Sequence record: SRR22947725_172 | Reading direction: 5' to 3' (one strand) | DNA length: 40,922 nucleotides | In this document: positions 24,501 through 26,224 of the stretch, piece after piece | Position numbering within the stretch: position 1 is the first letter of the stretch | How the letters are laid out: every line of letters starts with the position of its first letter | Position numbers and translations under genes: made by a program | The notes under the pieces: generated by a model | Told to the model about the DNA's origin: nothing | The model's input: only the letters and a program-made list of their open reading frames with translations | Databases searched by the model: none

Positions 24501-24519
24501 AATTTGATTCGTAACGCGG

Positions 24520-24562
24520 TAGGGTGAGCTCCCGTCGTGATGTTCTTTGACGGAGGTCTGAA
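24520..24562 (+). promoter_or_regulatory. pyrG -10 element and leader hairpin overlapping the Shine-Dalgarno
   Basis: TAGGGT 24520-24525; CCGTCG (24532-24537) pairs with TGACGG (24548-24553); SD GGAGG at 24552-24556. Confidence 0.6.
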
Positions 24563-26224
24563 ATGCCCAAGCACATTTTCGTGACAGGAGGCGTTGCCAG
24601 CTCCCTGGGCAAGGGCCTCACAGCCTCCTCACTTGGTCGCTTGCTCAAACACCGTGGCTACCGCGTCACGATGCAGAAGCTTGACCCGTACATCAACATC
24701 GATCCGGGGACGATGAACCCGTTTGAGCATGGCGAAGTGTTTGTCACCGACGATGGCGGCGAGACCGACCTCGACCTCGGACACTACGAACGCTTCATCG
24801 ACGAGAATCTCTCGCGCAACTCCAATGCCACGACTGGTTCGATTTACCAGTCAGTGTTGGCCGCCGAACGGCGTGGCGACTACCTCGGCAAAACCGTGCA
24901 GGTCATCCCGCACATCACCGACGAGATCAAGCGACGCATTGAACGTGTCGCACGCAACGACGTCGACGTGGTCATCACCGAAGTCGGCGGCACGGTCGGC
25001 GACATCGAGATCCTTCCGTTCCTTGAGGCGATTCGCCAGTTCCGCAACATGGTGGGCCGCGACAACGTCTGCTACATCCACGTCACGCTCGTTCCCTTCA
25101 TCGGCCCTGCCGGCGAGCAGAAGACCAAGCCGACGCAGCACTCGGTGACCGAACTGCGCAGCCGGGGAATCCAACCCGACGTCATCGTGTGTCGCAGCGA
25201 AGAGCCGCTGTCCGACGACCTGAAGCGCAAGGTTTCGGCAATGTGTGATGTGGAAGAGCGGGCCGTGGTCAACGCAGCGGACGCCAACAACATCTATGAG
25301 CTGCCGCTCATCCTGCACGACGAGGGCCTCGATGACTTTGTCTGCGACGTACTCCGACTCGATGGAGCGATTGACCTCACGTACTGGCAGCAGTTCGTCG
25401 CCAAGGTTGAAGCCGCCACAACTCCGGTCCGCATTGGCCTGATTGGCAAGTACATCCAACTGCCCGACGCCTACCTATCGGTGGTCGAGAGTCTGAAGCA
25501 CGCCGGGTTCCACCACGGCGCCGATGTCGAGATTGAGTGGATCCAGTCTGAGAACGTGGAAGGCCTTCTCGCCGCAGGCCAGTTAAGCCATCTCGACGGC
25601 ATCGTGATCCCAGGCGGCTTCGGCCACCGCGGTGTGGAAGGCAAGATTGCCGCCGCCCGTTACGCACGCGAGGAACAGGTACCGTGCCTCGGCATCTGTC
25701 TTGGGCTGCAGGCCATGAGCATTGACTACGCCCGCAACGTGGTCGGACTCGCAGATGCGAATTCGACGGAGTTCGACCCCACCACGCCATACCCAGTCAT
25801 CGACCTCATGCTGGACCAACGCGGGATCGAGGACAAGGGTGGCACGATGCGGCTGGGTGCCTACTACGCCGTGCTCGCCAGCGGCTCACAGATCGCGGAG
25901 GCATACGGCGAACCGGTTGTCAGTGAACGGCACCGCCATCGCTACGAATTCAACGAGCAGTACCGAGGGCAGCTCGAAGAGCACGGTCTCTGGTGTTCAG
26001 GCACATCACCCGACAACCGCCTCGTCGAGTTCATCGAACTTCCCGGGCACCCGTTCTGGGTCGCGACACAGGCGCACCCAGAGTTTAAGAGCCGCCCGGA
26101 CCGCCCGCATCCGTTGTTCCGCGAACTCATCGCCGCGGCCCTCGAGCGGCGGGCGGCAACAGACGGCACGGATGAGCCAGTGGCCGACGCATCGGTGCCT
26201 TCCGAGCCCTCGTTGCATTCGTGA
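24563..26224 (+). CDS. pyrG: CTP synthase
   Basis: [69 protein letters not shown]. Confidence 0.99.

Follow-up and report, generated by a model that had tools for sequence, protein, structure and literature searches.

A deeply conserved element at the pyrG promoter of Actinomycetota: a probable CTP/GTP-sensing start-site switch for CTP synthase

The last pyrimidine nucleotide is made by CTP synthase, which in mycobacteria is described, in the parts of the literature available, as an essential enzyme and a target for inhibitors. For its gene in Actinomycetota, pyrG, the control described in the literature covered, as far as its text was available, is WhiA binding in Streptomyces only (PMC3781837). 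The locus studied here lies in a stretch of 40,922 nucleotides from sequence record SRR22947725_172 (the window), and the question it raises is whether the short region ahead of pyrG may adjust CTP synthase to CTP supply through the choice of transcription start.

The pyrG promoter and leader in the window

The features of the locus are as follows.

22899..24500, + strand: recN, the upstream gene (TIGR00634 above cut-off, NCBIfam)
24518..24525, + strand: extended -10 promoter element G-G-TAGGGT of the TANNNT type, with the hexamer TAGGGT at 24520-24525 (from sequence)
24526..24530, + strand: spacer GAGCT, positions 1-5 (5 nt), of fixed length and variable sequence (from comparison of relatives)
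24531..24534, + strand: putative start-site sensor C6-C7-C8-G9, with the C's at 24531-24533 and G9 at 24534 (from conservation in relatives)
24532..24537, + strand: 5' arm, CCGUCG, of a hairpin opposing the Shine-Dalgarno sequence (SD) (from folding and comparison)
24548..24553, + strand: 3' arm of that anti-SD hairpin, UGACGG, whose GG forms the first two bases of the SD (from folding and compensatory pairs at positions 10-12)
24552..24556, + strand: SD, GGAGG, 6 nt 5' of the ATG (from sequence)
24563..26224, + strand: pyrG, CTP synthase, 553 aa, with its ATG at 24563 (TIGR00337 and PRK05380 above cut-off)
26221..27722, + strand: a Nudix hydrolase gene and xerD, overlapping pyrG and one another (NCBIfam profile search)

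The gap of 62 nt between the recN stop (24500) and the pyrG ATG (24563) carries the whole element, in which CCGTCG (24532-24537) is complementary to TGACGG (24548-24553); the leader is 29-31 nt long. All of these parts, from the -10 hexamer through C6-C8, G9 and the two arms to the SD, had been given in a preliminary description of this DNA and were confirmed at the positions listed. The Nudix hydrolase gene and xerD are probably co-transcribed from the pyrG promoter; in Corynebacterium glutamicum, cg1606-cg1607-cg1608 are given as a single operon.

Escherichia coli RNA polymerase favours position 7 (PMC5730371, available text), and in Actinoplanes 82% of -10-to-start spacers measure 5-7 nt, with a purine at 75% of starts (PMC7682106, available part). 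A C at positions 7 and 8 followed by a purine at position 9 thus pits position preference against base preference, and the outcome should depend on CTP:GTP. In the mechanism proposed here, C occupies each of the two start positions that polymerase prefers, 7 and 8; at high CTP the polymerase would start at C7 (24532), or at C6, and the extra C's would close the 6-bp hairpin over the SD, so that CTP synthase would be poorly translated. With CTP scarce compared with GTP, transcription would start at G9 (24534), the stem would lack its two closing C-G pairs, the SD would be more easily opened, and CTP synthase would be made. The product of the enzyme would thus repress the enzyme's synthesis without a regulator protein. 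We regard such a CTP/GTP start-site switch, its sensing being read from sequence, as the probable function of the element. In Streptomyces venezuelae, WhiA binds upstream of pyrG, and its largest ChIP peak lies there (PMC3781837, available text), and a protein may therefore add activation on top of the start-site switch; the binding is a point against the proposed reading, since a protein regulator exists in that species too.

Folding of the C7 transcript returned exactly the 6-bp stem 24532-24537/24548-24553 that the preliminary description had claimed, at -7.3 kcal/mol, although this hairpin is ordinary against shuffles (z -0.8, with 37 of 200 shuffles folding equally well). The G9 transcript adopts a different, weaker hairpin of -5.7 kcal/mol in which part of the SD is still paired, and neither fold stands out against shuffles. 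Opening the SD core is predicted to take 5.4-5.8 kcal/mol in the C7 transcript against 3.1-3.2 in the G9 transcript, so a C7 start adds about 2.2-2.7 kcal/mol. The earlier expectation that a G9 start frees the SD was therefore borne out in the falling cost of opening, but not in full, given the alternative hairpin.

Several general searches were blank. A strict sigma-70 scan returned no promoter at the pyrG promoter of the window, because TAGGGT shares only three of six bases with TATAAT. A terminator scan found none on the + strand within 22000-27000. Among Rfam 15 covariance models, none scored above its gathering score in the window (best E 5.2), and the loci of 20 relatives gave a best E of 0.1, all well under gathering scores. 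An unremarkable hairpin and a blank promoter scan are what would be expected if the arrangement had arisen by chance in GC-rich DNA and pyrG were transcribed solely from an upstream promoter. The window alone proves little, so the case rests on relatives, and any significance of the element derives from its conservation.

No terminator-like site lies between recN and pyrG, so read-through is possible, and in folding the longer RNA likewise buries the pyrG SD. Both observations would also fit a fixed G9 promoter, at which the hairpin would silence recN read-through mRNA or set mRNA stability and CC would merely favour initiation at G. Two RNA contigs (X1 and X2) that span the recN-pyrG junction point the same way, though they are assembled contigs and could be DNA; pyrG contigs X4 and X5, from two studies, start at 24557 and 24548, a weak hint at most. 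The RNA data for the window's organism consist of assembled contigs only, which cannot reveal start sites and are not counted as evidence. Elsewhere in the window, an ORF of 181 aa at 20258-20803, with a repetitive Lys/Ala-rich tail and no NCBIfam match at 1e-10, has a leaderless-looking start 7 nt past TACAAT.

Conservation and published start sites in relatives

Regions upstream of pyrG were sampled at four ranks around the nearest genome (G001), namely its genus, family, order and phylum, and further from two actinomycete orders (those of G109 and G168), from family f77 and from named contigs. The motif was defined as TANNNT-N5-YCC-R within 200 nt upstream of the conserved PyrG N-terminus, with expectations from dinucleotide shuffles; the counts exclude duplicate rows for a single genome, a contig without classification, two genomes not yet published and, of the 126 phylum genomes having a match, 16. 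Names applied to the coded groups (Mycobacteriales-like, Micrococcales-like, Streptomyces-like and Micromonosporaceae-like) are our assumption, based on their resemblance to named contigs.

The motif occurs at 18 of 19 loci of the genus (shuffle expectation 0.06), the nineteenth having A at position 6, at 26 of 28 loci of the family (0.32), at 6 of 11 in other families of the order (0.16), at all 27 in the order of G168 (0.28) and at 35 of 54 named Actinomycetota (0.90). It is likewise present at 28 of 28 loci both in the order of G109 and in family f77, these being counted without a shuffle expectation. In the phylum draw, which spans deep, mostly uncultured families, many of them without the motif, it was found at 40 of 106 loci (1.52) and was missing from 66, so that its distribution in the deep classes is patchy. 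None of 25 named non-actinobacteria has it (0.54). Because kin are not independent, these conservation figures are counts, not probabilities.

The geometry is fixed while the spacer sequence drifts. The spacer is 5 nt in 152 of 245 actinobacterial loci, each other length from 1 to 10 being found in 2-6 loci. When the -10 was picked without looking downstream, 100 loci gave Y6 in 96, C7 in 96, C8 in 96 and G9 in 94, against only 47-75 for the commonest base at positions 1-5. T takes position 6 in 34 of 100 loci, 62 of 100 carry CCC, 93 of 100 relatives have T at position 10, and A is tolerated at position 9, as in L303, which has a matching CCAUG/CAUGG stem. A G two bases 5' of the hexamer is found in 96 of 100 relatives, a figure that is not independent, since this base helped to choose the site. 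With conservation far above shuffles, a locked spacer and starts mapped in relatives (below), a chance arrangement is largely refuted already, and we hold it to be extremely improbable; judged by this comparison, the window's layout is exact and is not due to chance.

Some loci depart from the pattern. In family f18 (L145, L152, L154, L159, L169) there is no YCC-G9 and another leader is conserved, with a -10-like site, GACT(T)CCCC and a downstream GGGGG..GTCAC able to pair with GACT(T)CCCC; this is possibly another variant of the switch. Family f25 (L208, L213, L214, L217, L222, L247) has a short conserved leader, -10 plus 5 nt plus GACC..GGAGG, with no C7, and in most of its members a conserved GTGTCGG further upstream. 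Three loci titled Bifidobacterium (L061, L062, L082) encode PyrG 87-97% identical to that of the window over 120 aa, and two of them (L061 and L062) have Acidimicrobiia-like leaders too; all three are probably mislabelled or contaminated assemblies. A wider pyr regulon with the motif in common was another candidate, and was not seen: in five genomes the motif is missing from the 15 top-ranking matches to pyrD-like genes, pyrF and pyrE, although many of these matches are operon-internal.

The 162 distinct motif-bearing leaders comprise 100 with an in-frame start and an SD, 44 with only a start codon at position 9, and 18 with neither; ten of the 100 SD leaders also have an in-frame start codon at position 9. 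For the stem, the 3' arm was anchored solely on the G-run of the SD in the 100 distinct SD leaders, and pairing was found in 87 at position 9, 85 at position 10, 81 at position 11 and 66 at position 12. The pairs at position 11 are C-G in 33, G-C in 33, A-U in 5, U-A in 4, U-G in 5 and G-U in 1, giving 75 Watson-Crick pairs against 33 in column shuffles, a value reached by none of 5000 shuffles. On a tree of 216 PyrG sequences, position 11 shows only five changes of pair type, and a covariation test on independent pairs, with one or two such pairs on supported branches, was not significant, these pairs being too few to decide. The aligned leaders thus point to an anti-SD stem that shows compensatory pairs, with covariation built on few events. 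The predicted energies agree. Relative to G9, the C7 start raises the cost of opening the SD by 1.85 kcal/mol on average, against 0.27 in leaders shuffled with CC and SD retained, and the value is higher than in shuffles for 86 of 100 leaders. In 67 of the 100 the gap is larger than 1 kcal/mol and in 33 it is 1 kcal/mol or less, whereas a control step from position 9 to position 11 exceeds 1 kcal/mol in just 2 of 100. The conservation in relatives that the preliminary description had looked for was strongly in evidence: the spacer keeps its length of 5 nt, the anti-SD stem covaries, and the start mapped in C. glutamicum is G9.

That start, the single one listed for cg1606, is a G 8 nt past TATGCT and behind TCC, and corresponds to G9 (PMC3890552 Table S1, available part). 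Of about 109 neighbouring rows compared by eye, 16 share the distance, and pyrG alone has Y-C-C-R9; the study merged only starts no more than 1 nt apart. For Mycobacterium tuberculosis Rv1699, a single start is given, a G 81 nt upstream, on the leaderless sheet with the remark "extends annotated ORF" (PMC4633059, of which one supplementary file lay outside the look-up); this start is known without a view of its -10. Streptomyces coelicolor SCO1776 has one start, 125 nt upstream of the annotated start (PMC4895711, available part). The same distance, 125 nt, separates G9 from ATG in L212, a match that is suggestive only, since leader lengths vary widely in the family of L212. For Actinoplanes ACSP50_6328 (pyrG), a pair of starts 3 nt apart shares one -10, the UTRs being 64 and 67 nt long (PMC7682106, available part). 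If its leader is laid out as in its likely family, the starts would fall on G9 and C6, base identities not being visible in the table, and no relative in family f77 has a 64-nt leader by which the two could be placed on bases. The supplements of PMC12709180 and PMC5784534, as far as available, yielded no pyrG rows. The published rows that could be consulted thus show a genuine pyrG promoter in relatives, with a G start in use.

These maps weigh on the fixed G9 promoter from both sides. In the available tables pyrG has a single start in C. glutamicum, in M. tuberculosis and in S. coelicolor, and no second start two bases upstream, and no C start at pyrG appears in the published rows seen for the four actinobacteria (bases not visible for Actinoplanes). 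Nor does any of the datasets seen display a CTP-linked shift, which likewise speaks against the switch. A single start, or a single G, in three species is what a fixed G9 would give, and the missing C start counts against the switch, unless C-started RNA is short-lived, as reported for pyrC (PMC6524683, available text). On the other hand, a fixed G9 leaves unexplained why C occupies each of the two favoured positions, 7 and 8, with the distance to the -10 held constant, why the start should be at the uncommon position 9, and why the motif is at pyrG and not at pyrD, pyrE or pyrF; Actinoplanes, moreover, lists two starts. We consider the fixed promoter unlikely. For the start-site switch, the data show the geometry, its conservation, the compensatory pairing, the predicted energy difference and the published G9 start in one relative; we infer the use of C7 or C6 at high CTP, a choice that would follow CTP/GTP, and the size of the effect.

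Comparison with known pyrimidine switches

In E. coli and Salmonella pyrC and pyrD, two extra C's close a hairpin over the SD, a logic shared with the window (PMC6524683, available text). The layout that defines this type, in which a -10 is followed by pyrimidines, C at both 7 and 8, and then by a purine at position 9, is present in the window, and E. coli pyrC itself (TATCCT, 5 nt, T-C-C-G) has the same geometry. By prediction and comparison, the extra 5' C's complete an SD-covering hairpin that is weaker in the shorter transcript, with residual structure in the G9 form. In the same calculation E. coli pyrC requires 6.4 kcal/mol from the C start and 3.4 from the G start, and its gap of 3.0 kcal/mol is similar to that predicted for the window; E. 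coli pyrD, having a differing layout and a doubtful choice of SD, was unusable as a control. Unlike pyrC and pyrD, the window's element controls CTP synthase, belongs to Actinomycetota, has a stem of unrelated sequence and is known here from sequence alone. Both sequence-testable features are present; with dual use of starts and CTP dependence predicted, the element is termed pyrC-like and not a proven member of the class.

The E. coli K-12 pyrG locus (L281) has the same -10/N5/CCCG layout, and start-site switching has been suggested for it in print, though not elucidated (PMC7818426, available text, citing Turnbough & Switzer 2008). Its leader has no predicted anti-SD hairpin (5.2 against 5.1, with an uncertain SD assignment), whereas the actinobacterial leaders have a clear covarying one. 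In 80 metagenome loci chosen by likeness to E. coli PyrG (L328-L407), -10/N5/YCC-R was found in 21, and other spacers in 2-10 loci each. With the class of mechanism known and the idea already put forward for E. coli pyrG, the surprise is limited. A CTP start switch at actinobacterial pyrG was not described in openly searchable titles and the openings of abstracts; subscription papers and the 2008 review may hold one.

Bacillus subtilis pyrG is controlled by attenuation through CTP-sensitive reiterative addition of G (PMC12709180, available part), the same gene and the same signal, read at initiation. That system needs a GGG start, whereas the window's start region is CCCGT, with a lone G behind C's, and a Bacillus-type attenuator has an intrinsic terminator in its leader, whereas the leader of 29-31 nt in the window has none. 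By these sequence differences, the window's element is not the Bacillus pyrG attenuator. A different signal could still be read at the same promoter, with G9 as initiating base sensing GTP or (p)ppGpp, or with CTP acting by reiterative C addition at the CCC run instead of by a simple choice of start, and the near invariance of G9, the CCC found in 62 of 100 loci and the reiterative initiation known at pyr promoters (PMC7039003, available text) would all fit. Yet where position 6 is T, as in 34 of 100, only two C's are left for reiteration, and E. coli pyrG, with a CCC region, slips little, at 10.1% (PMC12709180, available part). As for GTP, A is tolerated at position 9, with its matching stem in L303, and a pure GTP sensor needs no pairing of C7 and C8 with the SD. 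We therefore find a different signal improbable, and read the element, which is real, deeply conserved and regulatory, with good confidence as a CTP/GTP start-site switch.

Leaderless and terminator-like outputs

The element is wider and more varied than the preliminary description supposed, extending over many actinobacterial lineages with leaderless and terminator-like outputs, which are not described for pyrC or pyrD in the available text of PMC6524683. In the order of G109 (L282-L309), position 9 opens an in-frame pyrG start codon, GTG in 26 and ATG in 2, at all 28 loci. The same is seen in some Acidimicrobiia, in Nocardia, in 5 of 30 f77 loci and at L065, L070, L072, L075, L079, L094, L108, L115, L118 and L140. 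Where position 9 is the first base of the start codon, the G9 transcript would be leaderless. Such starts at pyrG fall at position 9 in 52 cases and at position 7-8 in none; among candidate leaderless genes other than pyrG at the same loci, a rough set containing duplicates and doubtful ORFs, the start falls at position 7-8 in 24 of 42. In some leaders of this type (L065, L072, L303), CC pairs with early codons. Such pairing is a tendency of the type as a whole, in which the mean gap from the added C's is 2.0 kcal/mol, against 1.1 in codon-order shuffles (higher in 30 of 44). Changes between the hairpin and leaderless states number at least 12 on a FastTree tree, counting unsupported branches. 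A conserved uORF beginning at a position-9 GTG in hairpin-type leaders was considered and rejected, frames and stops being scattered over 31 leaders.

In family f27 (L146, L161, L162, L171, L173, L177), the stem closed by C7 and C8 is followed by a run of 5-9 T, giving a terminator-like hairpin that covers the SD too, and the 5' UTR of C. glutamicum likewise has a hairpin and T-run, the pairing being judged by eye. The aligned leaders suggest one sensor kept in much of Actinomycetota with three outputs, namely an SD-hiding hairpin, as in the window, a leaderless mRNA, and a hairpin plus U-run. In the leaderless lineages, a transcript started at G9 or A9 would be translated, and one with a two-base CC leader and no SD would be silent, the silencing at times aided by pairing of CC with early codons; the SD-hairpin and leaderless outputs would have swapped repeatedly behind one sensor. 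Taken jointly, these observations lead us to favour, with some reserve, an ancient polymerase-level CTP sensor (-10/N5/YCC-R) on CTP synthase across much of Actinomycetota, and in proteobacteria by parallel or common descent, that toggles between a leaderless mRNA and one with a CC leader. What is new here is this proposed leaderless-mRNA toggle, prompted by a pyrG start codon at position 9 in many lineages; no nucleotide-controlled toggle of the kind was found described in the openly searchable literature, though subscription papers may hold one.

If the start-site switch is as proposed, protein-free feedback by CTP would be common to streptomycetes, corynebacteria, mycobacteria, micrococci and the abundant marine and freshwater Acidimicrobiia. 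Many annotated pyrG starts would be predicted to be wrong, and the engineering of nucleotide overproduction in Corynebacterium or Streptomyces should alter C7/C8. Leaderless translation, common in Actinomycetota, would gain a regulatory use, in which two extra bases turn a gene off.
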